Assembly (NCBI GenBank): GCA_035574275.1
Contig: DATLYY010000007.1
Location: 4,928 to 68,927 of the forward strand
Length of the DNA stretch: 64,000 nt
Reading direction: 5' to 3'
From: Verrucomicrobiia bacterium
Lineage (GTDB): Bacteria; Zixibacteria; MSB-5A5; DSPP01
Shown here: positions 4,723-39,827 of the stretch, one piece after another
Layout: every line of letters begins with the position of its first letter
Numbering within the stretch: position 1 is the stretch's first letter
Notes under the pieces: generated by a model
The model's database searches: none
What the model was told of the DNA's origin: nothing
The model's input: only the letters and a program-made list of their open reading frames with translations
Position numbers and translations under genes: made by a program

Positions 4723-5967
4723 TCAGTATTCGTACCGGCGACGGCCGATGCCGGCCAATACCCCGAGCATAATCCAGGAGGTTATCATCGAGGTGCCGCC
4801 GTAGGAAACGAGGGGAAGGGGGAGGCCCGTGACGGGCATCAAACCGATGGTCATCCCGATATTCACCAGAACCTGAAAAACCAAAACGGCGGTGATGCCC
4901 AAGGCGGTGAAGCTGGCGAAGCTGTTGCGGGCTTTCTGGGCGTAGTCAATCCCGCGGTGAATCAGGTAGCCGAAAAGGGCGATCAGCACCAAAACCCCCA
5001 GAAAGCCGAACTCCTCCCCCACTACGGAGAAAATGAAATCGGTATGCTGTTCGGGCAGAAAGGCAAGCTTGGTCTGCGTCCCCCCCATGTACCCCTTCCC
5101 CAAAAGTCCGCCGGAGCCGACGGCAATTTTGGACTGGATGATTTGATACCCGGCGCCGCGGGGATCCCGGTTGGGGTCCAAAAAAATCAGGATGCGCAGC
5201 TTTTGATAATCGTGCAGCCGGTTCCAGACCAAAGGCATAATCATGCCGGCCAAAAGATTCACGGTCACCGTGGCGGTGGAGAAAAAGCCGCCGGGGCGGA
5301 CGAGATACAGGACGGCCAAAAGCAAAAGGAAAAAAAGCCCCCAGGAAATCCAGTGCAGGGCGGCCAAAAGACTCAAAGCGGGGGAGATGATGAAAAACAG
5401 GTAGATTGCCGGGATGGAGGACCAAAAAAGCATGGCCAGAAAAATGGCGAAAAAGACAAGCGAGGTGCCCAAATCAGGCTGGCGCAGAATCAAAAGCATC
5501 GGCAACAGGGCCAGAAAAAGGGCCGGCAGGAGCCGCTTGGGGATGTTCGTTTCGTACTTGGAGGAATAGGCCAGAAAGCGGGCCAAAGCGAATACGGTGG
5601 CAATTTTGGCCAGTTCCGAGGGCTGCAGGTTCAAAAATCCCAGATCGTACCAACGGGTGGCTCCCAAGCGGGTGGAGCCGAGAAAGAAAACGCCGATGAG
5701 GGCGAGGATGGCGACGATGTAAAAAAGGTAGGCGAAAGCCTCAAAAAATCGGAAGGGCAGGGCGTACACAACCCAGAAAGCGACCAGCCCCAAGGCGATC
5801 CAGAACAACTGTTTCAAATAGAGATCCTGCTCCAGCGGGTTGGGGGACATGTGGGTGGAACTGTAAATCAAGGCGACGCCGGAGAGGGAAAGGAGAAGCC
5901 CGATGGCCCAGAGCCGGCGGTCCACTTCGTTCCAGAACTCAAGGATTACGGTTTTTACGGCGCGCAT
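4723..5967 (-). CDS. rodA: rod shape-determining protein RodA (SEDS-family peptidoglycan glycosyltransferase)
   Basis: 414-aa polytopic membrane protein with FtsW/RodA motifs. Directly downstream of mrdA in a mreCD-mrdA-rodA operon. Confidence 0.88.
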   Translation of the reverse strand: MRAVKTVILEFWNEVDRRLWAIGLLLSLSGVALIYSSTHMSPNPLEQDLYLKQLFWIALGLVAFWVVYALPFRFFEAFAYLFYIVAILALIGVFFLGSTRLGATRWYDLGFLNLQPSELAKIATVFALARFLAYSSKYETNIPKRLLPALFLALLPMLLILRQPDLGTSLVFFAIFLAMLFWSSIPAIYLFFIISPALSLLAALHWISWGLFFLLLLAVLYLVRPGGFFSTATVTVNLLAGMIMPLVWNRLHDYQKLRILIFLDPNRDPRGAGYQIIQSKIAVGSGGLLGKGYMGGTQTKLAFLPEQHTDFIFSVVGEEFGFLGVLVLIALFGYLIHRGIDYAQKARNSFASFTALGITAVLVFQVLVNIGMTIGLMPVTGLPLPLVSYGGTSMITSWIMLGVLAGIGRRRYEY

Positions 5968-5968
5968 A

Positions 5969-7792
5969 TCAGTCGGAATACTCGAAGGTGGCGGAATCGG
6001 CCGGGCTGACCAGCGGGCCGGTCGGCTTTCTTTTCAACAGGTAGGCCTGCAGCATCTGCTGGGCCACCGGCGCCGCAATATCGCTACCATGGCCCGCATT
6101 CTCGACCAAGACGGCAATGGCGATGACTGGATTTTCCGCCGGGGCGAAGCAGGCAAACCAGGCGTGGGGCTCGCCGTGGGGGTTTTCCGCCGTGCCGGTT
6201 TTGCCGGCGACTTTGATCCCCTCCACCTGCGAGCGGTGGGCCGTGCCCCGCTGGCCGTGGACCACCTCGACCATCGACTTTCTTAGAATTTCAAGCGTTT
6301 CCTGCGAAAAAGGAAGCCGCTCGACGATTTCCGGCCGGTATTCCTGCACGCCGGTTTGATCCTGCACTTTCTTCAACAGATGGGGTTTCCACAAAACGCC
6401 GCCGTTTCCCAAAGCGGCGTAGAAATTCGCCAGTTGGAGCGGGGTGGTCAGATACTCCCCCTGCCCGATGGACAAATTAAGCATGACCCCCTGCGACCAT
6501 TTCCCCTTTCCCAGCCGGCGGTCATACCAGTCGGTGTTCGGCACCAGCCCGCGCGCCTCGTCGGGCAGATCGATTCCGGTGCGTTTGCCGAAGCCGCATT
6601 TTTTGCCGTACTCCGCCCATTTGTTGATACCGAGTTTCTGGCCGAGTTGGTAGAAGTAAACATCGCAGGATTGCTCGATGGCGCCGATAAGGTTCAAGCT
6701 GCCGTGCCCCTCCGGCTTCCAGCAGCGGAAAAAACGGGTGCCGAATTGATAGCCGCCGCGACAGGGAGTCGGCATATGGGTTTGAGGTTTCACCAAGCCA
6801 TCCTCCAAGGCCGCGCCGGCGGTCAACAGCTTGGCCGTGGAGCCGGGAGGGTATTGCGATTGAATCACCCGGTTAAGAAGGGGGTGATTGGGATCCTCCA
6901 CAATCCGGTTCCACTCCTCGTAGGTAATCCCGACGGAAAGCCCGGCCGTGTTGTAGACCGGTTTTGAAACGAAAGCCAGAATTTCCCCGTTGGCCGGATC
7001 CAGCGCCACGGCGCCGGCACAGCAAAAGTTAGCCAGCGCGGATTCGGCGGCCGCCTGCACATCCATATCGATGGCGATGACCATGTCGCTGCCGGAGATG
7101 GGGTGGAGCGGGGGCTTGTCCGGCACTTCCCCCAAAACCTTTCCCTGGGCGGTGACTTCGAGGTACAAGACGCCGTCCGAGCCGCGCAAAAGCTGATCGT
7201 ACTGTTTTTCAATCCCCCGCTTGCCGATGTAGCCCCCCTGCCGGTATCCCTTGGAGGCAAGCTGCAAAAGCTCCTGTTCCGAGATTTCGGAAATGTAGCC
7301 GACCAGATGGCTGCCCCAGTTGTTGGGGGGGTAGTCGCGGGCCTGCTCCGCTTGATAAATGACCCCCGGAAGGTCCTCGTTCAGTTCCTCCAGTTGCGCA
7401 ACGGTGGCGAAATCGACATCTTTTTTCACCTTGATCGGCTCGTAGCGGCTGGTGCGCTCCCGCTTTATCGCCGCATCCAGTTCCGCTTCGGTGAGGCCGA
7501 TCAAAGGGGCCAGTTTTTGGATGGTCAGTTCCAGGTCGCGCACCTCGTACGGCAGGATCGACACGGAATAGGCGGGGCGGTTGGCCACGATTTTTCGCCC
7601 GTGCCGGTCGTAGATCGCGCCGCGGGGGGCGGGAATGGGGATCAGGCGCAGCCGGTTGACGTCCGCCATCCGCCGGTAGTAGGGGTGAAAGACAATTTGC
7701 AGAAAGAAAAGCCGGATCACCAGGGCGCCGGCCAGAAGGGCCAAAACGGCCAAAAGGATTGCATTTTTGTTCCTCCGGGAAAATTCGTTCAA
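5969..7792 (-). CDS. mrdA: penicillin-binding protein 2 (peptidoglycan D,D-transpeptidase MrdA)
   Basis: 607 aa. N-terminal TM segment, PBP dimerisation domain and transpeptidase domain (STAKLLTAGAALEDG; SxN and KTG motifs present). Confidence 0.9.
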   Translation of the reverse strand: MNEFSRRNKNAILLAVLALLAGALVIRLFFLQIVFHPYYRRMADVNRLRLIPIPAPRGAIYDRHGRKIVANRPAYSVSILPYEVRDLELTIQKLAPLIGLTEAELDAAIKRERTSRYEPIKVKKDVDFATVAQLEELNEDLPGVIYQAEQARDYPPNNWGSHLVGYISEISEQELLQLASKGYRQGGYIGKRGIEKQYDQLLRGSDGVLYLEVTAQGKVLGEVPDKPPLHPISGSDMVIAIDMDVQAAAESALANFCCAGAVALDPANGEILAFVSKPVYNTAGLSVGITYEEWNRIVEDPNHPLLNRVIQSQYPPGSTAKLLTAGAALEDGLVKPQTHMPTPCRGGYQFGTRFFRCWKPEGHGSLNLIGAIEQSCDVYFYQLGQKLGINKWAEYGKKCGFGKRTGIDLPDEARGLVPNTDWYDRRLGKGKWSQGVMLNLSIGQGEYLTTPLQLANFYAALGNGGVLWKPHLLKKVQDQTGVQEYRPEIVERLPFSQETLEILRKSMVEVVHGQRGTAHRSQVEGIKVAGKTGTAENPHGEPHAWFACFAPAENPVIAIAVLVENAGHGSDIAAPVAQQMLQAYLLKRKPTGPLVSPADSATFEYSD

Positions 7793-8274
7793 AGGGTAAA
7801 CTCCGGCTCTTTTTTCCTTGTACGCCCGGCCAGGTAGAAAAGAACAAAAGCCAAAAGCATGGAATAAACGGCGCCCAAAAGGGAGTAGCGCCCCAGGATA
7901 TACAGCGTCGCGGTGGGGGAAAAACCGGTATCCGCGAGGTGGTACCCCAGTTCGTAAATCACCACGGAGAGGCCGGCGATGATCCCCTTGGAGTAGAAGT
8001 TTTCCAAGAAAAGATTATCCTTGAATCCCCCCAGCCAGTAACCCAGCGTCAGCCGCAAAAGGGTTCCCCATCCCAAAAGTGAGGGATGGAGCACGTCGGT
8101 CAGAAGCCCGGAGACGAAACCGAAGAAAAGCCCCTCCACGGAACCCCGCGTCAAGGCGAAGTAGGCGGTCAAAACAAGGCCGATATCCGGGTGGGCGCCC
8201 CCCACCGCGAGCCAGGACCGGAGGAGGGATTCGTACAAAACCACGGCCAAGAGGCCGGAAATGAAGGCCTTCAC
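7789..8274 (-). CDS. mreD: rod shape-determining protein MreD
   Basis: 161-aa hydrophobic protein between mreC and mrdA. Overlapping start/stop codons. Confidence 0.75.
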   Translation of the reverse strand: MKAFISGLLAVVLYESLLRSWLAVGGAHPDIGLVLTAYFALTRGSVEGLFFGFVSGLLTDVLHPSLLGWGTLLRLTLGYWLGGFKDNLFLENFYSKGIIAGLSVVIYELGYHLADTGFSPTATLYILGRYSLLGAVYSMLLAFVLFYLAGRTRKKEPEFTL

Positions 8275-9077
8275 CGGTTTTCCCGTTCCGGAGAATTTTT
8301 GGGAACCAGGATGAACAGCTCGTCCAACGCAGAGAAGCCGACGGCGGGCAGGAGGTCGATGCTGCGGAAAAAGGAGAGCGTGTCGGCAGTCACGGTTTTC
8401 ACCGTCCCGACCACCAGCCCCTCTGGAAATATCCCCCCCAGCCCGGAAGAGACGATGGTGTCGCCGACGGCCACGTCGTCGGCGGGGGAAATGTTTTCAA
8501 AAGAGAGGCAGGGGCCGGATTTCCATTTGACAATACCCAAGACCCGGCTCCTTTGGTCGCGGGCCGCAACCCGGCAGCCCGGATCAAAGAGGAGTTGAAT
8601 CACGGCGGCGTCCGGCGTGGCGTCCAGAACCTTGCCCACCAGCCCGTTCAAGTGCACGACCGGCAGATTTCGGCGTATTCCATCCCGGGTGCCGCGGTTG
8701 ACCGTGATTTCGGTCGGCCTCGGGGTGGCCTCGGCCCCCACCAGTTCGGCGGCAACCGGGCGGAAATCGGGCGGGGCGGAGAGGCCCAATAGTTTGCGCA
8801 GCCGCTCGTTTTCGAGCGAGCTTTCCTTTAAGGCCCGGTTTTCCATCTTCAGGCCCAAAAGCTCGTTTTTGAGGAGCCGGTTCGTCTCCCGTACGGCCAA
8901 AAGTTCGGAAAACGCTTTGCCGAGGGAGAAAAACGGAGCGTAGAGGGTGCTGGAGATGGCGGTCGCGAAGGTGTACTTAACCGGTTTGGGTAAAATTAAA
9001 AGCAGAAGGGAAAAGCCGGCCGTCAAGGCAATGGCGGCTTTCGGCTTTGTTTTAAACGGTACGGACAGTTCGCTCAA
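8271..9077 (-). CDS. mreC: rod shape-determining protein MreC
   Basis: 268 aa. N-terminal TM segment, coiled-coil region (LLKNELLGLKMENRALKE) and C-terminal beta domain. No mreB is adjacent. Confidence 0.85.
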   Translation of the reverse strand: MSELSVPFKTKPKAAIALTAGFSLLLLILPKPVKYTFATAISSTLYAPFFSLGKAFSELLAVRETNRLLKNELLGLKMENRALKESSLENERLRKLLGLSAPPDFRPVAAELVGAEATPRPTEITVNRGTRDGIRRNLPVVHLNGLVGKVLDATPDAAVIQLLFDPGCRVAARDQRSRVLGIVKWKSGPCLSFENISPADDVAVGDTIVSSGLGGIFPEGLVVGTVKTVTADTLSFFRSIDLLPAVGFSALDELFILVPKNSPERENR

Positions 9078-9123
9078 CGGTTTCGCCCCCTCCTATGTTA
9101 ATTCGGCAAAACCCGGATTTTAT

Positions 9124-9585
9124 CTATCCGTTGTCGGAGGCCTTATCCAAGGCCTCCAGCAGTTCCCCCGGGCTTTTGACGTCCATGAAACGCCGCCGGT
9201 TTTTTTCGTCCTTCATGATGAAGGAGAGCTGGGCCATCACGTTCAAGTGCGCCCCGATCGCATCCTCCGGAGCGGCGATCAGGAATAAGAGATAGACCGG
9301 CTTTTTATCCATCGCCTCGAAATCCAGGCCGCTTTTGGAACGGCCGAAGGCGATCACCACGCCGCGGGTGGCCGTGGTTTTGGCGTGGGGAAAGGCGACC
9401 CCGTATCCCACCCCCGTGGTCACCAGCTTTTCCCGCTCCAGAACGGCGGAAAGCAGCTCCTTTTCATCCTTGACCAGCTTGGAGCGGGCCGCCAACGCGA
9501 CCAGCTCGCGAATCGCCTCCTCCTTGGATTTGGCTTTCAGGTCCAGTGAAATCAGTTCCTCGCCGCAAAATTTTGACAATTTCAT
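9124..9585 (-). CDS. ptsN: PTS EIIA-Ntr-type regulatory protein (PtsN-like)
   Basis: 153 aa. EIIA(Fru/Ntr) fold signature with active-site His in 'GVGYGVAFPHAK'. Confidence 0.8.
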   Translation of the reverse strand: MKLSKFCGEELISLDLKAKSKEEAIRELVALAARSKLVKDEKELLSAVLEREKLVTTGVGYGVAFPHAKTTATRGVVIAFGRSKSGLDFEAMDKKPVYLLFLIAAPEDAIGAHLNVMAQLSFIMKDEKNRRRFMDVKSPGELLEALDKASDNG

Positions 9586-9593
9586 CTGCGCTC

Positions 9594-9759
9594 CTAAAAT
9601 TTTTCCGCCTCTTCCACCAGCATGATCGGGATCCCCTCCTCGATTTTGTATTTCAGCCGGCAGGCAAAGCAGGTCAGCCGTTCATTTTCTTCATCGTATT
9701 CGAGATTCCCCTTGCAGGCCGGGCAGGCCAGAATTTCCAGAAGCTTTTTGTCCAGCACC
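9594..9759 (-). CDS. Trm112/UPF0434-family small zinc-ribbon protein (not in the ORF track, <60 aa)
   Basis: Reverse-strand translation V-LDKKLLEILACPACKGNLEYDEENERLTCFACRLKYKIEEGIPIMLVEEAEKF* has CPxCK...C..C spacing diagnostic of Trm112/YcaR. GTG start. Lies between accA and ptsN. Confidence 0.7.
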
Positions 9760-9766
9760 AGTCCTC

Positions 9767-10774
9767 CTATTGTTTTTCTTCCGGTTCCGCGACCGGTTTG
9801 GCCAGCGATTCCGGTTCCGGCTCAATCGTATAGCGGCCCATCGAGCGGTATTTTTCTATGCGGTGCATAATCAACTCATCGGGCGGGAAGACGACCAGCT
9901 CGCCCAGGGCGGCCAGCACCTCTTTTTTCACGGCTTCAAAGGTTGTTTTGGGATCCCGGTGGGCGCCGCCCAACGGTTCCGGCACGATTTTATCGATAAT
10001 TCCCAGCTCGAGCAAATCAAACGAGGCGACTTTCAAGGCCTCGGCGGCCTCCTCTTTTTTTTCGCTGTCCCGCCAGAGAATGGCGGCGCAACCTTCCGGC
10101 GAGATGACCGAATACCAGGCGTTTTCCAGCATCAAAATCCGGTCGCCGATGCCGACCCCCAGGGCGCCGCCGGAGGCCCCCTCGCCGATGATCACCACCA
10201 CGATGGGGACCGGCAGGTTGGTCATTTCCCGCAAATTGCGGGCAATCGCCTCCGCCTGGCCGCGCTCCTCGGCGCCGATTCCGGGATAGGCGCCGGGGGT
10301 GTCTATAAGCACCAGAATCGGCAGCCCAAAACGGGCCGCCAGCTGCATGGCGCGCAGGGCCTTGCGATATCCTTCCGGATTGGCCATTCCGAAATTGTGA
10401 AACAGCTTTTCCTTGGTGTCCTTCCCTTTCTGCTGGGCGACCACCAAAAGCTTTTGATGGTCCAGCTTTCCGAACCCGGTAATTACGGCATGGTCGTCGG
10501 CAAACCCCCGGTCGCCGTGCAACTCGATAAAGTCGGTGATTAAGGCCTTGATGTAGTCGGAAGCGATGGGGCGTTTGGGATGGCGGGCGAGCTGGACGCG
10601 CTGCCAGCGGGTGAGCTTGGAGTAAATCTCCTTCTGCAGCCGCTCCAGCTTTTTTTCCAGCGCCGCGATTTCGCGGGAGAGTTCCACCGACTCGCCGGTG
10701 GCGAAATCCCGGATGTCGGCGATTTTTTTCTCCAGCTCGACGATCGGCTTTTCAAAGTCCAGGTAGCCGTTCAT
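9767..10774 (-). CDS. accA: acetyl-CoA carboxylase carboxyltransferase subunit alpha
   Basis: Strong AccA similarity from MNGYLDFEKPIVELE. Start chosen at the internal ATG (10774), preceded by GGAG. The longer ORF-track start would overlap the upstream gene. Confidence 0.9.
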   Translation of the reverse strand: MNGYLDFEKPIVELEKKIADIRDFATGESVELSREIAALEKKLERLQKEIYSKLTRWQRVQLARHPKRPIASDYIKALITDFIELHGDRGFADDHAVITGFGKLDHQKLLVVAQQKGKDTKEKLFHNFGMANPEGYRKALRAMQLAARFGLPILVLIDTPGAYPGIGAEERGQAEAIARNLREMTNLPVPIVVVIIGEGASGGALGVGIGDRILMLENAWYSVISPEGCAAILWRDSEKKEEAAEALKVASFDLLELGIIDKIVPEPLGGAHRDPKTTFEAVKKEVLAALGELVVFPPDELIMHRIEKYRSMGRYTIEPEPESLAKPVAEPEEKQ

Positions 10775-11799
10775 TTTTTCCTCTCCGCCACGTGCCGTAC
10801 CAAGATAATAAATGCGACCGACAAAAACAGGTACAAAAGCACAAGCCCGGATAAAATAAAACGCCGGTCCAACGTCACCAAGCACAAAACGAGAAAGGAA
10901 AAAGCAACCGACGAGGAGTAAAAGAGCCAGACCGTCACCTTGTGGGAAAGCCCCAGTTCCAACAGCCGGTGAAAGAGATGCTCCCGGTCGGCGGCATGCC
11001 AGGGCCGGCCGCCTTTCAACCGGCGGAAAAGGGTGGTGGCGGCTTCCGCCAGAGGGACTCCGAGGGTCAACAGCGGAATGAAAAGCGCCGTGGCGGCAAA
11101 CCCTTTGATGGGAAACAGGAGCCCGAGCGAAGCGAACAAAAACCCGACGGTAAGCGAGCCGGAATCCCCCATAAAAATTCGGGCGGGAAAATAATTAAAG
11201 GGGAGAAAGCCGGCGAGCGCACCGGCCATACACAAGGCAAAAACGGCCAAGAGCGGGATTTGCAGAAAATGGCCGGACAAAAACAAAGTCACAGCCACAA
11301 TCAACGAGACGCCGGCGGCCAGCCCATCCAGCCCGTCAATCAAGTTGATGCTGTTGGTCAGCACCACAACCCATAAAAAAGTGACGGGGAGGGACCAAAA
11401 ACCAAGATTCCAGGCGCCGAAAAACGGGATGTAAAGCACCCTGATGGCCAGACCTCCCGCCACCAGAATGGCACCGCCCAGTATTTGCACGAGCAGCTTA
11501 AGCCGCCAGTCGGAGGTATGCAGATCGTCGAACAATCCAACGGCAAAAACGACCGATGAACCGAAAAACACGAAATAGAGCTCCGAGGGAATGGGGCCGT
11601 TTAAGAAAAAAACGGCGAAAAGTCCGGCCCAAAAGGCGGCAAAAATGGAAATGCCGCCCAAACGGGGAGTCGGCTCGACGTGAATTTTACGAGGGCCGGG
11701 CTGGTCGAAAAGCCCTTTTTTTCGACAAAGGTACGTAACCAGCGGCGTCAAGGCCAGACCGATTCCAAAAGAGAGCAAAAACGCAATCCAGCGGCTCAT
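10771..11799 (-). CDS. polyprenyl-phosphate N-acetylhexosamine-1-phosphate transferase (WecA/WbpL/MraY family, PNPT)
   Basis: About 342-aa polytopic membrane protein with MraY/WecA family motifs (DDxxD-like 'LFDDLH', 'NSINLIDGLDGLAAG'). ATGA overlap with the upstream GT2. Confidence 0.82.
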   Translation of the reverse strand: MSRWIAFLLSFGIGLALTPLVTYLCRKKGLFDQPGPRKIHVEPTPRLGGISIFAAFWAGLFAVFFLNGPIPSELYFVFFGSSVVFAVGLFDDLHTSDWRLKLLVQILGGAILVAGGLAIRVLYIPFFGAWNLGFWSLPVTFLWVVVLTNSINLIDGLDGLAAGVSLIVAVTLFLSGHFLQIPLLAVFALCMAGALAGFLPFNYFPARIFMGDSGSLTVGFLFASLGLLFPIKGFAATALFIPLLTLGVPLAEAATTLFRRLKGGRPWHAADREHLFHRLLELGLSHKVTVWLFYSSSVAFSFLVLCLVTLDRRFILSGLVLLYLFLSVAFIILVRHVAERKK

Positions 11800-12632
11800 C
11801 GATGCATCCCAAGGAGGCGGAAAAGGGCGCGCTGAATCCAAAAAAGGCAAGCCAGCCACACGCGGAAGAGTCGGTGGGTAGGAAAATGTTTTTTAAAGTA
11901 GTAAAGGAGGGAGGCGTGCTGCTGCCCGAGTTTTTGCAAAGAATTTTGACCGGTGGAGAAACTCCAGTAATGCCGGACCCTTACTTCCGGCGTAAAGAAG
12001 ATTTTGGCGCCGGCTTCGGACAGCCGCCTGCAGAGGTCGGTGTCCTCCACAAAAAGGAAAAAATTGGGGTCAAAGCCGCCGACTTCGAGAAACTTTTTCT
12101 TTCGCACCAAAAAGCAGGCGCCGCCGACAAACCCCGTTACCGGTTCGGTTTTTTCGGGCAACGGGCGCAAATAACCGCCCCTAGGGCCAAGCAGCCATCC
12201 CAACGGAGAGCGGCGGGCAAAAAGGATGGTCGACGGCGTGGGAAAATTGCGCACCGTCGGGATCGGTATTCCTTCGGGCGTTTCCTGCAGGGGGGCCATC
12301 AAATCCGCCTCGTCCGCTTCCGCCAATTCCCGCAATCGGCTAATTTGCGCGGGATTGATTTCCAAATCGCCGTTCATAATCAAAAGCCAGTCGCCTTTGG
12401 CTTGGTTCGCACCGCGGTTGACCGCCGCGCCGTACCCCCGGTTCTTTGGCATCGGCAGATAATTTAACGCAAGAAAATCGGTTTTCAGCTTTTCACCGGT
12501 CTGGTCCGGAGAGGCGCTGTCCACCAGGATGATTTCATCCAACTCCTTGCCTATCCCTGCAATCAGCGGCTCCAGGAGCCGCCGGGTCAAAGGGTAGCTC
12601 GCATAGGTAACCATCACCACCGAGACGCCCAC
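11796..12632 (-). CDS. glycosyltransferase family 2
   Basis: 278 aa. N-terminal GT-A fold (VVMVTY..., 'VDSASPD', DxD 'NGDLE'). Confidence 0.8.
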   Translation of the reverse strand: MGVSVVMVTYASYPLTRRLLEPLIAGIGKELDEIILVDSASPDQTGEKLKTDFLALNYLPMPKNRGYGAAVNRGANQAKGDWLLIMNGDLEINPAQISRLRELAEADEADLMAPLQETPEGIPIPTVRNFPTPSTILFARRSPLGWLLGPRGGYLRPLPEKTEPVTGFVGGACFLVRKKKFLEVGGFDPNFFLFVEDTDLCRRLSEAGAKIFFTPEVRVRHYWSFSTGQNSLQKLGQQHASLLYYFKKHFPTHRLFRVWLACLFWIQRALFRLLGMHR

Positions 12633-12635
12633 TTT

Positions 12636-13349
12636 TCACAGTTTCCCTAAAATGGACATAAGCCGCAGCCGCCAGACCATCCAAACAGCCTCGCGCACGA
12701 TTTTTTTAGACATTTTGCTCGTGCCTTCCCGCCGGTCGATGAAGATGATGGGGATTTCCTTCAACCGGAACCCCTTTTTCCAGGCGCGAAAGCTCATTTC
12801 GATTTGGAAGGAGTAGCCGTTGGAGCGGACCTTGGACAAATCAATCGCTTCCAGCACCTGCCGGCGGTAACACTTGAACCCGCCGGTGGCGTCCCGCAGG
12901 GGCAAACCGGTCACGATTCGGGAATAGGTGTTGGCGTAGTAGGAGAGCAAAAGCCGCCCCATCGGCCAGTTCACCACGTTGACGCCGGAGATGTAGCGGC
13001 TGCCGATGACCAGGTCGGCCTCCTTGACGGCCTGCAAAAAGTCGGGGAGGTATTTGGGGTCGTGGGAAAAATCGGCATCCATTTCAAAAAGGTAATCGAA
13101 ATCTCGTTCCAGCCCCCAGCGGAAACCGGCCAGATAGGCCTGCCCCAGTCCGTTTTTCTTTTCCCGGTGCAAGACAAAAATCCGGTTGTTTTGGGCGGCC
13201 ATCCGGTCGGCGATTTGCCCGGTTCCATCCGGGGAGTTGTCGTCCACTATCAAGACGAAAAGGGAGGGATCGACCGCCAAAACCGCCGGGACGATTTTTT
13301 CGATGTTTTCCTTTTCGTTGTAGGTTGGGATGATGACTAAGGCCTTCAT
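12636..13349 (-). CDS. polyprenol-phosphate mannose/hexose synthase (DPM1/Ppm1-like GT2, soluble catalytic domain)
   Basis: 237 aa. 'IIPTYNEKENI...VDDNSPDGT...FEMDADFSHDP' is typical of the dolichyl-phosphate mannosyltransferase family. Confidence 0.82.
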   Translation of the reverse strand: MKALVIIPTYNEKENIEKIVPAVLAVDPSLFVLIVDDNSPDGTGQIADRMAAQNNRIFVLHREKKNGLGQAYLAGFRWGLERDFDYLFEMDADFSHDPKYLPDFLQAVKEADLVIGSRYISGVNVVNWPMGRLLLSYYANTYSRIVTGLPLRDATGGFKCYRRQVLEAIDLSKVRSNGYSFQIEMSFRAWKKGFRLKEIPIIFIDRREGTSKMSKKIVREAVWMVWRLRLMSILGKL

Positions 13350-15788
13350 TTATGCGGGAGCGGGAGTTTCGGTTTGGGTGAAGCCTTTTTGCCGTGAAAG
13401 AAAAAGGAAAAATCCGACGGCCAGAAGCACGAGGAGCGAAAAAGCCCAAGTGATGGCGCGGGCTTTGCTATAAAGTGTAGGGATGTAGCGCCACTCAACG
13501 GTATGACTGCCCGCCGGGAGATAGACGGCTCGGAAGGTGATGTTGGCCTGGTACACTTTCAACTCTTTTCCATTCTCAAAGGCGCGCCAGTTGGGATAAA
13601 AATTTTCGCTCAAAAACAGAAAGCCGGGGCGGGGGAGATTCACGCTCGTTTTGTACGATTCAATTTGACGGTCGGTAATTTCGGCCACCACCGGAGATGC
13701 CAGCGTATCCGGCTGCCAGCCGGGAGGAGCGGGGTCTTCAGTGAAGAATATTGTTTTTGCTGGGTTGAAAGTTTGCGGGCGGATTCGCTCGACTATCTCG
13801 GCGGTGCTTTTGACGGTCCTGTAATCGAACACGGCAAAGGCACGCGGGAGAGCGGAGAGGTTTCGGTAGAGATAGATGCCGCCATAGCTGCCGGCCATTT
13901 CCAGAACGCCGGGCATTACAAATGAATCACGACTGACAATGTAGCGGGTGTTGAGCAGGTTCAGAAAATTCAAGTTCCCCAGATTGGCGAAGGGTTTGCC
14001 GCCGATGAAGTCCTCGTACCACCGGAGCTGGTTGCCGTGGTAGCCGGTGATGCTTTCAATGTCAAAATAAGGAAGATAGTCCTCCGTGCCGAAGATGGAA
14101 GCGCCGGTCATGCTTTGCGGGGGAACAAAAATGCGGCCCGGTGCGGGGTCGGATTTGACCGCATTCACCAGCGGGTGGGGGCTGAAATGCGCCGCCAAGT
14201 CGGTTGTTTCGATGAAGTTCTTGTCCAGCCGGAACAAATCGAACGCGCCGATCAAGAGCAGGGCGGCCACCAGAACAGAGGCCGTCACGCTTCTTTTAAA
14301 ATAGAGCCAAATCAAACCGAAGGAGAGACCGCCGATGAAGAGGGAAAGCCAGGCCCGGCCCGCGATTTTGGAGTAATTGGCCTGAAAGATCGATTCTTTG
14401 AAGGGGGGCATATCGGAATAGAAAAATCCCTTCCAGAAACCGGCAAAGCCCTTGCCCGTGAAAGTGATTAAAAGCGTTAAAAGCAGAATCAAACCCACGA
14501 TGGAACCGAGGGTTACAAAAAGGCGTTTTTTTAACTTCTGGTTCAATTCGTTCAGGCGCGCCAGCAGTTGTTCGAGGCCGATACCGGCCAGAAGCGCTCC
14601 GGAAAAGGCAAACAGAAACATTATCATACTGGGAGCGCGCATCTTTTTTACTTGGGGAATCAAATAATAAAAAAGCTTAAAGAGAGGGGTGGTCGCACCG
14701 AGAGCGTAAATTAAGGCGAAGAGCGCCAGAGCAACAAAAAACCACTTTTTGCGTTCTTTCCACAAGACCACACCGGTCAAAGCAAGAAGCAGGCAAACCA
14801 GGCCTGTGTATTCGGAATTGTCCTTGAAGGGATTTTTTCCCCAATAGCTTTGTTCGGCCTGCGTCATCATTCCCGAAAAGCCGCCGATGAGCTGTCCCAC
14901 CAACTCCTCCGTGTGCATCGACCAGGAGGCGGCCCATTCGTAGCCCCGCTCTTCGGCGCGAGGGGAGTAGTTGTTCACGTAGTGAATGCCGGGCCACATC
15001 TGGATGGCGGAAACGCCCAGGCCGACAACCACTCCAAGCGCAATGGCGGCCGAGCGAATGACCGCCCAACTCCAGGCCTTTTCTATCCAGATTTTCTCGA
15101 TAATCCGATAACCGGCGTAGAAGGCCAGCGCAAGATGGGTGAAATAGGCCATCTGGGGATGGGGAGTGAGCCAGATTAAACCTAAGACACCGCCCATTAA
15201 AACGGAATTTAGGAACGGTTTTTCCTGCAGGGCGACTTCCATGAAAAGCAGAGCCAGCGGAAAGAGAGCGGTGACGAAAATCTTTCCGTCATGCCCTGGG
15301 CTGACCAGGGAAACGAGATAGGTGGAGAGCATATAGAAAAGGCCAGAGGTGAAGGCGCCGAGATAACTTGCTCCGAAGCGGCGGGCGCAGGCGTACATAA
15401 AACAGCCGGCCAGAAAGATGTGCAAAACTTGAATCCAGCCCAAAGCCCGGTCGAGCGGCATCAAAAATTTAAGAAAGCTTAACGGGTAAAAAATGTCGCC
15501 GTGGAAGGCATCCACAAACGGCATCCCGCCGAAGATGTAAGGGTTCCACTGGGGAATGTGGCCGTAGTTTTTAAAAAACTCCACCAGATAGGAACGGAAA
15601 AAAATGCCGGCTTGCAGCGTGTCGGAACCGGCCAGCATCTGGTTGGAAAAGACAAACTTGGCGAAGAGAATTATCACCAGCACAAGGTAAACGCCCACCG
15701 GCAGATAGGGAAAAAGGCGCTCGTTTTCCCACCAGAGGACGGCTTGCATCGCTTTTTTGGGTGTGGGTTTATTCTTTTTGTCAGTCAT
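13350..15788 (-). CDS. YfhO-family large integral membrane protein (putative GT-C-fold glycosyltransferase)
   Basis: 812 aa. More than 10 predicted TM segments in the N-terminal 500 aa and a C-terminal soluble region. Architecture typical of YfhO. Contiguous with the GT2 and flippase-like genes. Confidence 0.65.
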   Translation of the reverse strand: MTDKKNKPTPKKAMQAVLWWENERLFPYLPVGVYLVLVIILFAKFVFSNQMLAGSDTLQAGIFFRSYLVEFFKNYGHIPQWNPYIFGGMPFVDAFHGDIFYPLSFLKFLMPLDRALGWIQVLHIFLAGCFMYACARRFGASYLGAFTSGLFYMLSTYLVSLVSPGHDGKIFVTALFPLALLFMEVALQEKPFLNSVLMGGVLGLIWLTPHPQMAYFTHLALAFYAGYRIIEKIWIEKAWSWAVIRSAAIALGVVVGLGVSAIQMWPGIHYVNNYSPRAEERGYEWAASWSMHTEELVGQLIGGFSGMMTQAEQSYWGKNPFKDNSEYTGLVCLLLALTGVVLWKERKKWFFVALALFALIYALGATTPLFKLFYYLIPQVKKMRAPSMIMFLFAFSGALLAGIGLEQLLARLNELNQKLKKRLFVTLGSIVGLILLLTLLITFTGKGFAGFWKGFFYSDMPPFKESIFQANYSKIAGRAWLSLFIGGLSFGLIWLYFKRSVTASVLVAALLLIGAFDLFRLDKNFIETTDLAAHFSPHPLVNAVKSDPAPGRIFVPPQSMTGASIFGTEDYLPYFDIESITGYHGNQLRWYEDFIGGKPFANLGNLNFLNLLNTRYIVSRDSFVMPGVLEMAGSYGGIYLYRNLSALPRAFAVFDYRTVKSTAEIVERIRPQTFNPAKTIFFTEDPAPPGWQPDTLASPVVAEITDRQIESYKTSVNLPRPGFLFLSENFYPNWRAFENGKELKVYQANITFRAVYLPAGSHTVEWRYIPTLYSKARAITWAFSLLVLLAVGFFLFLSRQKGFTQTETPAPA

Positions 15789-16691
15789 TTACAATTTCCA
15801 GGCCACCAAAGCCCCTGCGGTTTCCCCCAAGACGACCCAGAGGCGGGAAAGGGTGGAAATCAAAATCGCCACGGGGTCGGGAAAGTAGATGCTCAAAATC
15901 AAGGCCAGAACCGCCTCGCGCACTCCCAGCCCGCCCGGGGTGAAAAAGCTCAAGTAACCAATCAAGTAGGCGGCCACGTAGGCGCCAACGACCGGAAAGA
16001 AGTTGCCGACCTCCCCGGTCACCGCCACCGTAAAGAAAAAAAAGGCCGTACCGTGCAGAAACCATCCGAAAACATAGGAGGCGAATATACCGGCGAGAGA
16101 AGTTTTCTTCAAGGCCAGAGCGGGCTCGGTTTTCTCGAGCCTGCGCAAAAGCCAGCGGAGCGTTTTTTCGGTCAAATTGGGCCGGGTGATAACAACCAGC
16201 GCCCCCAGCGTCACGGCGCCCCCCAAAATCCAGATGGTATCCTTAATCCACCCCTGCCGGGTTACAGCCGGGAGGACTCCGGTGGCTAAAATCAAAAGCA
16301 ATGCGGCGGGGATGTTTATCAACTGGCTCAAAACAAAGGAGGCCGTCGAGGTGCTTTTGGAAATTCCCTCCCGCTCGCACATCGCCACCAAGCTGACGTA
16401 CTGCCAGATGCGGCCGGGTAGGTAGCGGGCCAGGTTGGAAAGATAGGAGATTTTAAAGGCCTTTTTGAGCTTCAAGGATTTGCCGAAAATTTTCAAAATC
16501 TCGCTCCAGACCCAAGAGAGATAGACAAAATTCCCCAGCAGAATGAGCAGAGAAAAGCCGAGCCAGAAGTAATTTATTTTCCACTCATACTGCCGTACCT
16601 GCTGCCAGTCGGCAACGACTTTTTTCCCCAAAAAAATGAAAATCAGAAGGACGGCCGCCCAGCGCAGAAAGATGAACAGCTTTTGTTTCAA
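15789..16691 (-). CDS. flippase-like domain protein (UPF0104 / LPG-synthase TM-domain family)
   Basis: 300-aa polytopic membrane protein. Sequence resembles the MprF-type flippase domain family (conserved Arg/Lys after TM1, 'NLARYLPGRIWQY'). Confidence 0.6.
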   Translation of the reverse strand: MKQKLFIFLRWAAVLLIFIFLGKKVVADWQQVRQYEWKINYFWLGFSLLILLGNFVYLSWVWSEILKIFGKSLKLKKAFKISYLSNLARYLPGRIWQYVSLVAMCEREGISKSTSTASFVLSQLINIPAALLLILATGVLPAVTRQGWIKDTIWILGGAVTLGALVVITRPNLTEKTLRWLLRRLEKTEPALALKKTSLAGIFASYVFGWFLHGTAFFFFTVAVTGEVGNFFPVVGAYVAAYLIGYLSFFTPGGLGVREAVLALILSIYFPDPVAILISTLSRLWVVLGETAGALVAWKL

Positions 16692-17803
16692 CGGTCGAAG
16701 GGGAACTTCGGTTCGGATTCTTCCGGCAGCGGGGTTTCGGGAACCCCGGCGTCCCGCGATTGTCCCGAAACGGGAGCGGGGCGGCCCTGCGGCGGCCGAT
16801 TCTGGTGACGGGGGCGCAGAGGGCCGTGCGCCGGGCGGTTTTTCAGTTCCCCCACCTCGCGCGCCAAATTGTCCATCCGGATCTGCAACTCAACCAATGT
16901 TTCCCCCAAAAATCCCAAGGCGAAAAAGGAGATGCCCAGAAGCTCCAGAAGCATCACCAGGTACAAAATCGGCCGGTATCCCTCGTGGGCGAAGACCCGG
17001 AAACCGATGGCAACCAGTCCGATTATGATTCCGAGGGCGATTAAAACCAAACCCCAAGAGCCGAAGAAAAGAAGCGGTTTTTTGGAAAAGGAAAGCTGGA
17101 ATTTGACCGCCAGCAAATCCAAAAAGCCGATAGGGATGCGCCAGAAGCCAAACTTTGATTTGCCGAACTTGCGGGGATAGAGGCGGACCTTTACCTCGGT
17201 CACCTTGAACCCCTGCTCGTGGGCCATCACCACCAGATAGCGGTGCCAGTCCTTGCGGAAGGAGAGGGCGTTCAGCACCTCCCGCTTGAACCCCTTGATG
17301 GAATTCAAATCGTGCACCGGGACTTTAAACAACACCCGCGAAAGCGAATTGTAGATGAAAGAGACGAAGCGCTTGGGGCCGTAACGCCCCTGTTTCCAAC
17401 CGGTCACCACGTCGAATCCGGAGGTGAGCCGGTCCACCATCTGGGGCAAATCGTTGGGGTGATACTGCAAATCGGCGGGGAAAAAGAAAAGGAAGCGCCC
17501 TCGGGCCAGGCCAAAACCGGTGTTCAGGGCCGCCGTCACCCCCTGGCGTCTTTTGTGGTAATACACCCGCAGAAAACGGTAGCGGTTGGCCAAGTCGCGC
17601 GCTTTGGCATAGGTTTTGTCGGTTGAACCGTCATCAATCAGAATCAATTCGCCAGAAATCCGTTCGCGGCGGAAGACCTCGTCAAACGTCTCCAGAAGCG
17701 CCGGCAGGTTCTCCTCTTCGTTGTGGGCCGGGACGACTACGGAGACCAAAAGCCCGCGGGGACGGTCGGGACGCCGGCGGACGGGAGGACGGGTCTCCGG
17801 CAT
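16688..17803 (-). CDS. GtrB/ArnC-like GT2 polyprenyl-phosphate sugar synthase with C-terminal TM anchor
   Basis: 371 aa. N-terminal GT-A ('VVVPAHNEEENL', 'IDDGSTDKT', 'PADLQYHP'), then two TM helices (LLFFGSWGLVLIALGIIIGL..., ILYLVMLLELLGISFFALGFLG) and a Pro/Arg-rich tail. Confidence 0.8.
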   Translation of the reverse strand: MPETRPPVRRRPDRPRGLLVSVVVPAHNEEENLPALLETFDEVFRRERISGELILIDDGSTDKTYAKARDLANRYRFLRVYYHKRRQGVTAALNTGFGLARGRFLFFFPADLQYHPNDLPQMVDRLTSGFDVVTGWKQGRYGPKRFVSFIYNSLSRVLFKVPVHDLNSIKGFKREVLNALSFRKDWHRYLVVMAHEQGFKVTEVKVRLYPRKFGKSKFGFWRIPIGFLDLLAVKFQLSFSKKPLLFFGSWGLVLIALGIIIGLVAIGFRVFAHEGYRPILYLVMLLELLGISFFALGFLGETLVELQIRMDNLAREVGELKNRPAHGPLRPRHQNRPPQGRPAPVSGQSRDAGVPETPLPEESEPKFPFDR

Positions 17804-24889: not shown

Positions 24890-26203
24890 CTACTTCAAGA
24901 AGGGAGAAAGCACCGCCTTCAAATCCGGCTTCCCCAACTCTTCCAGTTCGTAGCGGACGCGCAGCATCGGTTTTTTCACCTTCAGAAGCCGACCCAAATC
25001 AATCGGCGTGGCGACGATGACCAAATCGGCTGGAACGCGGTTGATGGTGTTCTGCATATCCTTGATTTGCGCCTCGCCATATCCCATCGCCGGCAGGAGT
25101 TTGCCGATGTGGGGATATTTTTTGTACACCCCCACCAGGCTTCCCTTGATGTAGGAGCGGGGGTCAAGTAACTCGGCGGCGCCGAATTTGCGGGCGGCCA
25201 CCACCCCGGCGCCGTATTCCATTTCCCCATGGGTCAAAGTGGGCCCATCCTCGATAACCAGCACTTTCTTGCCGCGGATGCCGTTCCCTCCTTCGACGAA
25301 AATAGGCGAGGCCGCTTCGATGACCACAGCGTCCGGATTCGTGCGTTCAACGTTTTTCTTCACGGTCTGGATGTTTTCAAACGCCGCCGTGTCCACTTTG
25401 TTAATCACCACCACGTCGGCCGACCAGAGATTCTGCTCCCCAGGGAAATAAGCCAGCTCGTGCCCGGGGCGGTGGGGATCCACCACGGTTATCAATAAAT
25501 CCGGCTTAAAGAAAGGATAATCATTATTGCCGCCGTCCCACAGAATGACGTCCGCCTCTTTTTCGGCCTGCCGCAGAATTTTTTCGTAATCAACCCCGGC
25601 ATAGACCACCGTTTTGCGCTCCAAATGCGGCTCGTATTCCTCCCGCTCCTCAATCGTGCAGTCGTAGCGGTCCAAATCCTTGAAATCGGCGAAGCGCTGG
25701 CAGGTCTGCTTGACCAGATTGCCATAGGGCATCGGGTGGCGCACCACCACCAGCTTTTTGCCTGCTTTCTTCAAAATGTCGGCCACCTTGCGGGTGGTCT
25801 GGCTTTTGCCGGATCCCGTGCGCACGGCGCAGACCGCCACGACGGGGACTTTGGATTTTAGCTGCGTTTCTTTCGGCCCCAGCAGCATAAAACTGGCCCC
25901 CTCGGCCATCACCTGCGAGGCTTTATGCATCACGTAGGTATGGGGCACATCCGAGTACGAAAAGACGACCGTGTCGATTTTTTTCTTTTGGATGATTTCG
26001 GTCAACTCCTCTTCTGCGTAGATCGGAATACCCTTGGGGTAGCCCCGTCCGGCCAATTTTGCCGGATATTTGCGATCCTCGATATTCGGTATCTGGGTGG
26101 CGGTGAAGCAGACCACTTCGTAATTCTTGTTGCCGCGGAAGGCGGTGTTGAAATTATGAAAATCCCGCCCGGCGGCGCCCATTATCAAAACCTTCCTTTT
26201 CAT
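24890..26203 (-). CDS. P-loop protein of the cyclic 2,3-diphosphoglycerate synthetase-like family (assignment tentative)
   Basis: 437 aa. N-terminal 'MGAAGRDFHNFN' and Walker-A 'TGSGKSQTTRKV' recall proteins annotated as CPGS-like. Function not verifiable from sequence alone. Confidence 0.45.
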   Translation of the reverse strand: MKRKVLIMGAAGRDFHNFNTAFRGNKNYEVVCFTATQIPNIEDRKYPAKLAGRGYPKGIPIYAEEELTEIIQKKKIDTVVFSYSDVPHTYVMHKASQVMAEGASFMLLGPKETQLKSKVPVVAVCAVRTGSGKSQTTRKVADILKKAGKKLVVVRHPMPYGNLVKQTCQRFADFKDLDRYDCTIEEREEYEPHLERKTVVYAGVDYEKILRQAEKEADVILWDGGNNDYPFFKPDLLITVVDPHRPGHELAYFPGEQNLWSADVVVINKVDTAAFENIQTVKKNVERTNPDAVVIEAASPIFVEGGNGIRGKKVLVIEDGPTLTHGEMEYGAGVVAARKFGAAELLDPRSYIKGSLVGVYKKYPHIGKLLPAMGYGEAQIKDMQNTINRVPADLVIVATPIDLGRLLKVKKPMLRVRYELEELGKPDLKAVLSPFLK

Positions 26204-29254: not shown

Positions 29255-29518
29255 TTGCCTTATTGGCTTGCCGGTTTAAATTTACGGCCTACTATGCCGG
29301 TGGAGGAGGCCAAGGCCCAAGTTGTAAGGAACCGCAAAGCGGTCGGGAAGCGGCTTTTGTTCAACGTGGCGCTCTGCTTTGAATGCGGGGCCTGCGTGGG
29401 GGTTTGTCCCCACGATTCACTGGCTTTAACTCCGCGCGGCATCGAAATCGACCACCACACCTGCACGCTTTGCAACGCCTGCGTGCGCACCTGCCCTACG
29501 GGAGCGTTTACTTTATGA
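29255..29518 (+). CDS. 2x[4Fe-4S] ferredoxin (start uncertain; ATG at 29294 also possible)
   Basis: Two CxxCxxCxxxCP motifs (CFECGACVGVCP; CTLCNACVRTCP). Stop overlaps the start of the downstream oxidoreductase (ATGA). Confidence 0.65.
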   Translation: MPYWLAGLNLRPTMPVEEAKAQVVRNRKAVGKRLLFNVALCFECGACVGVCPHDSLALTPRGIEIDHHTCTLCNACVRTCPTGAFTL

Positions 29519-30702: not shown

Positions 30703-30718
30703 AAAAACCAGAGAAAAA

Positions 30719-30967
30719 TTACGCGGCCTTGGAACGGGACAGGCGGGATTTGAGCCGGGCGGCGCGGTTTTTGGGAATCAGCTTCCGCTTGGCGGCTTTG
30801 TCGATGAGCGAAAAGGCCTTGCGAATCTCCTCCGATTTCTTGGAGGCGTCGCTTTCGGTCAGGGCGGTTTTGAAAACCGTTTTCAACCGGGTCTTCAGCG
30901 CCTTGTTATGCTCGCGCAGTTTTTCCGACTTCCTAAGCGCCTTTTTGGCTGATTTATGTCTTGGCAT
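30719..30967 (-). CDS. rpsT: 30S ribosomal protein S20
   Basis: 82 aa, 'MPRHKSAKKALRKSEKLREHNKALKTRLKT...', highly basic. Classic S20. Confidence 0.92.
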   Translation of the reverse strand: MPRHKSAKKALRKSEKLREHNKALKTRLKTVFKTALTESDASKKSEEIRKAFSLIDKAAKRKLIPKNRAARLKSRLSRSKAA

Positions 30968-31009
30968 TCATTCTCCTTTGGCCCTCCAAAGTAATTTTTT
31001 GGTCCCCAT

Positions 31010-36184: not shown

Positions 36185-36188
36185 CCCC

Positions 36189-36554: not shown

Positions 36555-36596
36555 CCTTGCCGAAAACCACCGACCCGCATAATTTGAAGGCGCCGA

Positions 36597-37484: not shown

Positions 37485-37493
37485 GGAGCGACG

Positions 37494-38739: not shown

Positions 38740-38747
38740 GGCAGACG

Positions 38748-39818: not shown

Positions 39819-39827
39819 GAGGGAATC

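Follow-up and report, generated by a model that had tools for sequence, protein, structure and literature searches.

The gene cluster and its proposed function

Six tightly packed genes between the housekeeping genes accA and icd of an uncultured bacterium raise the question of what they add to the cell envelope, and of which protein would carry the sugar across the membrane. The genes occupy positions 10771-17803 of a 64,000-nucleotide stretch of DNA, hereafter the window (contig DATLYY010000007.1 of GenBank assembly GCA_035574275.1, positions 4,928 to 68,927 of the forward strand), which is deposited as Verrucomicrobiia bacterium and placed by GTDB within the Zixibacteria (MSB-5A5; DSPP01). 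We favour, with a probability of roughly 60%, the reading that the cluster encodes a multi-component pathway for transmembrane (periplasmic) glycosylation, dependent on polyprenyl-phosphate sugars, in a diderm affiliated with the Zixibacteria. From the icd side to the accA side, the genes, named g6 to g1, are as follows:

16688-17803, minus strand: g6, 371 aa, a GtrB/ArnC/PgfS-like family 2 glycosyltransferase (GT2), predicted polyprenyl-phosphate sugar synthase
15789-16691, minus strand: g5, 300 aa, a stand-alone PplT/UPF0104/COG0392 protein resembling the MprF flippase domain, predicted lipid flippase
13350-15788, minus strand: g4, 812 aa, a glycosyltransferase of the GT-C fold with YfhO-like architecture
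12636-13349, minus strand: g3, 237 aa, a soluble DPM1-like GT2, predicted polyprenyl-phosphate hexose (mannose-type) synthase
11796-12632, minus strand: g2, 278 aa, a soluble GT2, putative cytoplasmic glycosyltransferase acting on a lipid-linked primer
10771-11799 (open reading frame, ORF, to 11859), minus strand: g1, a WecA/MraY-superfamily PNPT (polyprenyl-phosphate N-acetylhexosamine-1-phosphate transferase)

A preliminary description of the window, made from its sequence alone, had already recognised six contiguous or overlapping genes for an envelope glycosylation cluster, and the gene limits as well as all six domain assignments (PNPT, GT2, DPM1-like GT2, GT-C, MprF-type flippase-like protein and GtrB-like GT2 with a transmembrane (TM) anchor) were borne out. 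The six ORFs are co-oriented and translationally coupled. The spacing is 1 nt between icd and g6, 0 nt both between g5 and g4 and between g4 and g3, and 3 nt between g3 and g2; g6 and g5 overlap by 4 nt, with TTG as the g5 start codon, and ATGA overlaps form both the g2/g1 and the g1/accA junctions. Gaps of 0-3 nt or 4-nt overlaps run unbroken from mdh/icd through g6-g5-g4-g3-g2-g1 into accA. The g1 ORF extends to a GTG at 11859 (362 aa), but its start is most likely the ATG at 11799 (342 aa), because a 342-aa gene is called for the 85%-identical ortholog in L001 (labels L001-L090 denote the gene neighbourhoods of relatives compared with the window) and because this ATG gives the ATGA overlap with the g2 stop codon.

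In the favoured pathway, g6 (GtrB/ArnC-like) and g3 (DPM1-like) would transfer sugars from nucleotide sugars to undecaprenyl or polyprenyl phosphate at the cytoplasmic face. The lipid-linked monosaccharide would then reach the periplasmic leaflet, most likely carried by g5 in place of GtrA/GtcA or ArnEF, and g4 would transfer the sugar to a periplasmic acceptor held by its beta-rich domain, with D56 as the likely catalytic base. The PNPT g1 and the GT2 g2 would probably make a polyprenyl-diphosphate-linked N-acetylhexosamine-sugar primer, which would serve as the acceptor glycan or else form a glycan in parallel. The acceptor could be lipopolysaccharide/lipid A or a lipoglycan, but also a polymer linked to peptidoglycan, or proteins. 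The preliminary description took the host to be a diderm, and this assumption gains support from a tripartite pump at 55997-61812 (plus strand), composed of a TolC-like outer membrane efflux protein, an HlyD-type adaptor, an ABC ATPase and two MacB-type permeases, because such a pump implies an outer membrane and a periplasm.

The GT-C enzyme g4

For the 812-aa product of g4, the preliminary description proposed a YfhO-like GT-C enzyme, which should be recognisable by acidic catalytic motifs in the first periplasmic loop. Sequence searches of PDB chains with the g4 profile or with g5 found nothing meaningful, and therefore predicted folds were compared for both proteins. The AlphaFold2 (AF2) model of g4, built on 25 orthologs, reached a pLDDT of 84.9 and a pTM of 0.85, and in a Foldseek search of the PDB it matched the GT-C enzymes AftD, ArnT, AglB, EmbB, STT3, PglB and AftA (E=3e-7 to 1e-3, prob 1.0), with PimE also among the structural matches. 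In the model, ~13 TM helices are followed by a beta-rich domain in the periplasm (~526-770) and by a last TM helix at the C-terminus (771-803); DSSP likewise assigned helices up to residue 525, beta-rich structure at 526-770 and a helix at 771-803. This layout, in which a polytopic GT-C module, a large extracytoplasmic domain and a single C-terminal TM helix follow one another, corresponds in the model to the YfhO architecture.

In ArnT, PglB and PMT, the catalytic acidic residue of GT-C enzymes sits in the first periplasmic loop. Residues D56 and D98 of g4 fall between TM1 (29-46) and TM2 (112-137), which is the first periplasmic loop, and the expected motif is thus present. D56, H96-G-D98, P164-G-H-D-G-K169 and R277 are invariant among the 25 orthologs, as are E295, K322-D-N324, E326 and R384, and this invariance holds across orthologs of only 40-45% identity. 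From its position in the model and its conservation, D56 is the likely candidate for the catalytic base.

The YfhO label itself fared less uniformly. The architecture and the GT-C fold stood, but the window protein scored 23.3 bits against PF09586 (YfhO), below the gathering score of 28.5, and only over residues 720-777 (58 residues), which align with the C-terminal end of the profile. Among the 25 orthologs, 21 matched PF09586 at E<=1e-3, weakly (best E=1.7e-9). At its N-terminus, g4 also matched PF10131 (PTPS_related) at 24 bits, under the threshold of that family. The superfamily is very large, with 66,827 cluster representatives (50% identity) at E<=1e-3. Some of its members are fusions: P0207, P0212, P0213, P0218, P0223 and P0236 (~1210-1290 aa) carry an N-terminal PMT_2-type GT-C module of ~430-470 aa joined to a full-length g4-like GT-C, which connects both of the GT-C families found adjoining g5-type genes.

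Lipid-sugar synthases, GT2 and PNPT

The product of g6 matches PF00535 (GT2) at 98.6 bits, and its full-length NCBIfam matches, PgfS and ArnC, both stay under cutoff. Residues 20-304 align to Synechocystis GtrB sll0501 (5eke, E=2e-24) and to ArnC (9bhc, E=3e-23), and C-terminal TM helices are located at residues ~250-268 and 279-297. Two C-terminal TM helices are a hallmark of membrane-anchored polyprenyl-phosphate-sugar synthases. The C-terminus of g6 (window 16688-16890) forms a low-complexity tail of ~65 residues rich in Pro, Arg and Gln, which is shared with close relatives (370-371 aa) and absent from distant orthologs of 310-326 aa.

The second predicted synthase, g3, matches PF00535 at 109 bits, and its closest solved relative is the dolichol-phosphate-mannose synthase of P. 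furiosus (5mlz, E=2.4e-32, 115 bits, residues 1-229). Its NCBIfam matches, AglJ, DPhHxTase (dolichyl-phosphate-hexose transferase) and PpgS, are weak and all below cutoff, the best score being 63 bits against a cutoff of 325, which leaves it short of an equivalog-level assignment of sugar or lipid. The g2 product lacks a TM helix and matches PF00535 at 79.7 bits together with C-terminal GT2 sub-family models; its NCBIfam and PDB matches are weak and include no informative close relative. Finally, g1 belongs to the PNPT superfamily (PF00953 Glycos_transf_4, 126.6 bits, E=1e-36) and has 11 TM helices; it is distantly related to MraY structures (E=1e-13) and scores 102 bits against the WecA model TIGR02380, far from the equivalog cutoff of 326, so that an assignment to WecA itself is not reached.

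The flippase-like protein g5 and its likely cargo

The 300-aa product of g5 proved to be flippase-like on profile search, as the preliminary description had expected. It scores 90.3 bits against PF03706 (LPG_synthase_TM; gathering score 33.4), the alignment covering residues 13-284 of 300 and profile positions 7-292 of 302. Its AF2 model (pLDDT 84.8) matches MprF flippase domains only: the top six Foldseek matches in the PDB are all MprF cryo-EM structures (9j8s, 9goe, 7duw, 9j8q, 6lvf and 7f47; TMq 0.52-0.61, prob 1.0), and every match after these has prob <=0.2. PF03706 is its sole domain. Because the aminoacyl-phosphatidylglycerol (PG) synthase domain (DUF2156/PF09924) is absent, g5 is not MprF proper but a stand-alone PplT/UPF0104/COG0392 protein. 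The flippase position of the cluster is thus filled by a PF03706 protein rather than by a small flippase of the GtrA/GtcA type or of the small multidrug resistance (SMR) ArnE/F type, and no match to a GtrA-type family was found in the six proteins or the larger annotated ORFs of the window, a search that did not extend to small ORFs or to other parts of the genome.

Homologs of g5 in other phyla show a similar association of flippase-like protein and enzymes. Their genes always adjoin a GT-C gene and usually also one for a GtrB-like GT2. In L085, a g6-like GT2 (46%), a GT4, the PplT gene, a YfhO-like gene (30%), a g3-like GT2 (67%) and dapF follow one another, and L087, from a Gemmatimonadetes metagenome-assembled genome (MAG), has YfhO-like, PplT and g3-like (59%) genes. 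L086, L089 and L090 have, in this order, a PMT_2-type GT-C, a GT4, a g6-like GT2 (37-40%) and PplT, sometimes with a methyltransferase and a second PMT_2, and L088 has PMT_2 and PplT. Because this PplT subfamily lies so consistently beside GT-C, usually with a GtrB-like GT2, a shared pathway for the three is well supported on comparative grounds, and so is a functional link between g6-type GT2, PplT-like protein and GT-C. The three-component logic that the preliminary description saw here is therefore backed by comparative genomics as a probable reading, in which g5 is a candidate for the part of GtrA. A side feature of L085 (9971-10828) and L087 (3385-4557), both outside the Zixibacteria, is that dapF, for diaminopimelate epimerase, follows the YfhO-like/PplT/DPM1-like module, a second neighbour related to peptidoglycan in another lineage.

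Gene context favours a lipid-linked sugar as the substrate of g5. That g5 flips the polyprenyl-phosphate-sugar donor falls, in our estimate, just short of an even chance; it would account for the g6/g5 overlap, for the g6-PplT adjacency in other phyla and for AglD, in which a dolichyl-phosphate-sugar GT2 is fused to UPF0104. On the other hand, the substrates that have been tied experimentally or genetically to PplT-type flippases are all glycerolipids (Lys-/Ala-PG, glucosaminyl-PG (GlcN-PG) and aminohexosyl-hexosyldiradylglycerol (HNHDRG)), which weighs against a sugar donor. Since a GT4 also often adjoins the PplT gene, g5 may flip the lipid acceptor instead.

Taken further, this would be a lipoglycan pathway with the same enzymology: a glycerolipid-based glycolipid would be made in the cytoplasm, by the GT4 in fuller modules and by g2 or another enzyme here, flipped by g5, and then extended in the periplasm by YfhO-like or PMT_2 GT-Cs using polyprenyl-phosphate sugars made by g3 and g6. 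The actinobacterial synthesis of phosphatidylinositol mannosides, lipomannan and lipoarabinomannan, with the GT4 enzymes PimA/B, Ppm1 and the GT-C enzymes PimE/MptA, offers an analogue. Besides the diacylglycerol-based cargo of the flippase family, such a pathway would fit the GT4 genes directly adjoining PplT in L011, L059, L036, L085, L086, L089 and L090, the DPM1/Ppm1-like character of g3, and the presence of PimE, AftA, AftD and EmbB among the fold matches of g4. It is nevertheless unlikely in our view, considering that the window cluster has neither a GT4 nor any other GT-B enzyme, that g5 is coupled by a 4-nt overlap to g6, with g6-PplT adjacency in three other lineages, that AglD joins the UPF0104 domain to a dolichyl-phosphate-sugar synthase, and that the PNPT g1 suggests a primer linked to polyprenyl diphosphate rather than to a glycerolipid.

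Glycerolipid cargo could also mean that g6 and g5 modify membrane lipids independently of any GT-C, making and flipping a glycosylated phospholipid or glycolipid that changes surface charge. HexSDF of C. difficile and GpgSDF of P. aeruginosa do pair a glycosyltransferase with a UPF0104 flippase, yielding HNHDRG and GlcN-PG, respectively. These systems use GT-B synthases and a deacetylase, however, and neither enzyme was found in the cluster or directly beside it, for which reason this was dropped as the main explanation. In addition, the whole length of g6 is GtrB/ArnC-like and includes the two-TM anchor that polyprenyl-phosphate-sugar synthases typically have, and homologous PplT genes consistently adjoin GT-C enzymes. 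A Hex/Gpg-type role is accordingly very improbable.

Conservation in Candidatus Zixiibacteriota

Window proteins were compared by tblastn with 84 loci, and neighbour statistics were taken over 83 g4-like genes. Gene order is fully the same in metagenome contigs whose g4 orthologs are 71-89% identical, the 89%-identical contig (JGI 3300006865) belonging to hot-spring and sediment samples; hundreds of Candidatus Zixiibacteriota MAGs make up the next tier of g4, at 38-45% identity. In a scanned genome collection, 246 relatives were confirmed, and nearly all of them carry the label Zixibacteria or, by automatic labelling, Ignavibacteriales. The order across the phylum is g6-like GT2, (g5-like), g4, g3, g2, (g1), accA, Trm112, PTS-EIIA, mreC, mreD, PBP2, rodA, the genes in parentheses being variable, and more than 50 Zixibacteria genome loci keep the cluster order. 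Because this order persists while g4 is only ~40% identical, the arrangement lies far outside what chance would produce.

The constant core is g6-g4-g3-g2. Orthologs of g6 stand upstream of g4 or g5, g2 follows g3 in essentially all main Zixibacteria loci, g1 is absent from about a quarter of the loci, and icd/mdh lie upstream in close relatives only. Immediately upstream of the 83 g4-like genes, a g5-like gene was found in 35 cases and a g6-like gene in 30, and the immediate downstream neighbour was g3-like in 57. Identity across the Zixibacteria loci is 64-77% for g3, 62-69% for accA, 45-55% for g6, ~40% for g4, 27-36% for g5 and 25-36% for g2, which makes g3 the most conserved gene of the entire block. 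Zixibacteria genomes hold several g4-like paralogs, including a tandem pair (L084:9989-12433 and 12670-15117), at least three in MAG B21T1B10, and copies in unrelated contexts that have no local GT2 (among them L072:9974-12430 and L027:9959-12433). The extreme conservation of g3, combined with multiple g4 paralogs that have no synthase of their own, suggests a single donor, made by g3, that several GT-Cs would share.

Many Zixibacteria loci carry more than the window does. In at least 35 loci, and in most Zixibacteria relatives, a protein of ~710 aa is encoded directly upstream of the g6-like GT2 (for example L011:4797-6935, L003:6876-9026 and L017:6880-9024). It has ~12 TM helices, C-terminal tetratricopeptide (TPR) repeats and invariant 'ADPP...TDPPQY' motifs after TM1, and it is sometimes preceded by a DegT aminotransferase; neither gene is present in the window. 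No Pfam family matched the ~710-aa protein, which may be a second GT-C; hhalign gave it a probability of 23% against g4, and in the PDB a profile search found counterparts for the C-terminal TPR repeats alone. In some Zixibacteria loci a GT4 lies between g6 and g5. Since both this GT4 and the TPR protein are absent, the window holds a reduced version of the module. The six-gene unit of the preliminary description is thus real in the window but not fixed in the phylum, where g5 and g1 come and go and relatives add the TPR protein or GT4. Other upstream neighbours in relatives are varied housekeeping genes (pyrB, pyrC, CN-hydrolase, radA-like and flavin reductase genes) that offer no functional clue.

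Such variability would be expected if two or three independent modules were held together only by conserved order in a long housekeeping super-operon. In that case, g6, with or without g5, would serve another GT-C, either the ~710-aa TPR protein of relatives or one encoded elsewhere here; g3 and g4 would form a two-gene glycosylation pair; and g1 and g2 would start an unrelated polyprenyl-diphosphate-linked glycan of the O-antigen or enterobacterial common antigen type. The position of the ~710-aa protein directly upstream of g6, sometimes after DegT, resembles an ArnB/ArnC/ArnT-like layout, and the junctions with the unrelated housekeeping genes icd, mdh, accA, mreCD, PBP2 and rodA are equally tight. 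Yet the g5-g4 pairing survives relocation: at least 10 such pairs lie in unrelated settings, next to uvrA, acyl-CoA dehydrogenase, multihaem cytochrome or methyltransferase genes. The g6-like, PplT, YfhO-like and g3-like genes are moreover found together once more in L085, which is not among the close relatives, and the low hhalign probability and TPR-confined structure matches leave the ~710-aa protein no more than a candidate GT-C. We hold the independent-modules explanation to be doubtful, though it carries real weight.

Several points count against a single periplasmic glycosylation pathway and belong together here. The g5 gene is missing from ~40% of the main Zixibacteria loci and hence is not obligatory there; g4 of the window falls short of the Pfam YfhO gathering threshold, and no solved YfhO structure was among its PDB fold matches in Foldseek; two lipid-sugar synthases for one GT-C are unusual; and the conserved neighbours accA, icd and mreCD give no clear functional clue. 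Furthermore, the ~710-aa TPR membrane protein may be the real partner of g6 in most relatives, and g1 and g2 may be part of a separate pathway. As for the target, the neighbours mreCD-PBP2-rodA in Zixibacteria and dapF in L085 and L087 hint at the cell wall, although mere synteny could produce the same picture.

Comparison with known systems

Three-component systems of a GT-A enzyme, a flippase and a GT-C are a precedent for the periplasmic glycosylation pathway (PMC8035078). GtrA-GtrB-GtrC modifies O-antigen in enterobacteria, and CsbB-GtcA-YfhO glycosylates lipoteichoic acid in B. subtilis and S. aureus and wall teichoic acid in Listeria (PMC5836110, PMC8035078). The cluster resembles both in its membrane-anchored GT2 g6, which has a GtrB/CsbB-like fold and a pair of C-terminal TM helices, in a large GT-C, g4, which has YfhO-like architecture and conserves an Asp in its first outer loop, in a membrane protein placed in the flippase position between these partners, and in tight operon coupling. 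It differs from both in that the flippase-position protein belongs to PF03706 (MprF-type) and not to the small four-TM GtrA/GtcA family, and in the additional soluble DPM1-like synthase, PNPT and further GT2. The cluster also belongs to a diderm that lacks teichoic acids, and its g4 stays below the Pfam YfhO threshold.

In pointing out an MprF-type protein instead of GtrA, the preliminary description implied a novelty. PF03706 indeed occupies the flippase position, but archaea provide a precedent: Makarova et al. (2015) described neighbourhoods of UPF0104, AglD-like GT2 and PMT/STT3-like GT-C genes and proposed a flippase role (PMC5898192). The archaeal families are arCOG00899, arCOG00897 and arCOG00563, AglD being the dolichyl-phosphate-sugar GT2 fused to UPF0104 (PMC5898192), and COG0392 already bears the name 'predicted membrane flippase AglD2/YbhN'. 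Both settings combine a polyprenyl (dolichyl)-phosphate-sugar GT2, an MprF-flippase-like domain and a GT-C, and in both the flippase role is predicted from context. Unlike in archaea, where fusion is frequent (AglD), the proteins here are bacterial and separate, and the GT-C belongs to a different family. What is new is therefore a version that is bacterial and split, contains PplT and has two lipid-sugar synthases, the MprF-type substitution having been predicted for archaea before.

With the ArnB-ArnC-ArnE/F-ArnT pathway, which attaches aminoarabinose to lipid A, the cluster shares the full-length alignment of g6 to ArnC (E=3e-23), the presence of ArnT among the best structural matches of g4, and the DegT (ArnB-like) aminotransferase that stands ahead of the block in many of the Zixibacteria relatives. 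In contrast to that pathway, the window has no ArnA/ArnD-type enzymes, no SMR-type ArnE/F and no aminotransferase, and g4 is much larger than ArnT, with a different periplasmic domain. HexSDF and GpgSDF (PMC10128005, PMC12713373) likewise encode a stand-alone PF03706 protein with a glycosyltransferase, and a flippase role was proposed for it; their synthases, however, are GT-B enzymes acting on glycerolipids, accompanied by a deacetylase and no GT-C, whereas here GT-A enzymes resembling polyprenyl-phosphate-sugar synthases stand beside a GT-C. The polyprenyl-phosphate-mannose pathways of actinobacteria also offer parallels. The DPM1-like g3 adjoins a GT-C, in the manner of Ppm1 with the GT-C enzymes PimE/MptA/PMT; AftD, AftA, EmbB and PimE are among the fold matches of g4; and the PNPT and GT2 could build a diphosphate-linked primer, as WecA and WbbL do for AftA-D/Emb. 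Orthology at the sequence level is lacking, however, and phylum and envelope differ.

Our literature search found no experimental study of a bacterial PF03706 and GT-C system, no study of Zixibacteria envelope glycans, and none of a Bacteroidetes GT-C O-oligosaccharyltransferase from which the target of the cluster could be named. Of all parts of periplasmic glycosylation systems, the flippases for polyprenyl-phosphate monosaccharides are understood least, and no substrate is assigned to most stand-alone MprF-flippase-like (PplT/UPF0104) proteins. PplT between a GtrB-like synthase and a GT-C recurs with two GT-C families in several phyla, and a conserved bacterial module of this kind would give the orphan PplT family a concrete, testable assignment and would indicate that Zixibacteria and neighbouring phyla make an envelope glycoconjugate not characterised so far. 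Its broadest form is offered only tentatively, as an idea with well below even odds: g5-type PplT proteins would be widespread, unrecognised bacterial flippases of lipid-linked sugars, working with GtrB-like synthases and YfhO-like or PMT_2 GT-Cs to build a major Zixibacteria envelope glycoconjugate, with the machinery genetically welded to accA-mreCD-PBP2-rodA and several GT-C paralogs fed by one highly conserved DPM1-like synthase. If this held, a diderm might be making, for example, a peptidoglycan-associated polymer or a lipoglycan. Practical value is limited by the lack of cultured organisms and by the archaeal prediction, which had already set out the logic.

Neighbouring genes and other features of the window

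On the accA side, window 4723-10774 (minus strand) encodes accA, a Trm112-like protein, a phosphotransferase system (PTS) EIIA(Ntr)-like protein, mreC, mreD, PBP2 and rodA, a block whose order and strand are conserved in the phylum and which is joined to g1 by the ATGA overlap. Some close relatives carry the labels 'Limisphaerales bacterium' or 'uncultured Ignavibacteria/Ignavibacteriales' (P0011 and P0125; L006, L007 and many CAZ* records). As gene order and sequence put them with the Zixibacteria, these labels are probably binning or taxonomy-label inconsistencies.

Five ORFs of the window (283-437 aa) were without a Pfam match at E<=1e-5, namely 24890-26203 and 28212-29192 on the minus strand, 37494-38426 and 51883-52806 on the plus strand, and 62824-63675 on the minus strand. 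At 29383-32596 (plus strand), a flavoprotein of the geranylgeranyl-reductase family (PF22578) is encoded just upstream of the lipid II flippase MurJ; it could serve to saturate polyprenols and would then matter for the type of lipid carrier.

Pilins, one of the targets considered in the preliminary description, were not specifically supported, as the type IV pilus genes (40358-48979) lie ~22 kb away and are unlinked in relatives. They belong to a motility and pilus region at 35015-48979, which encodes a DUF4388 protein, a TPR and Roadblock/LC7 (MglB-like) protein, an Arf/MglA-like small GTPase, PilB with its MshEN domain, PilT, PilC and a PAS histidine kinase, with genes for PilX-like and N-methyl pilin-like proteins in the opposite orientation.

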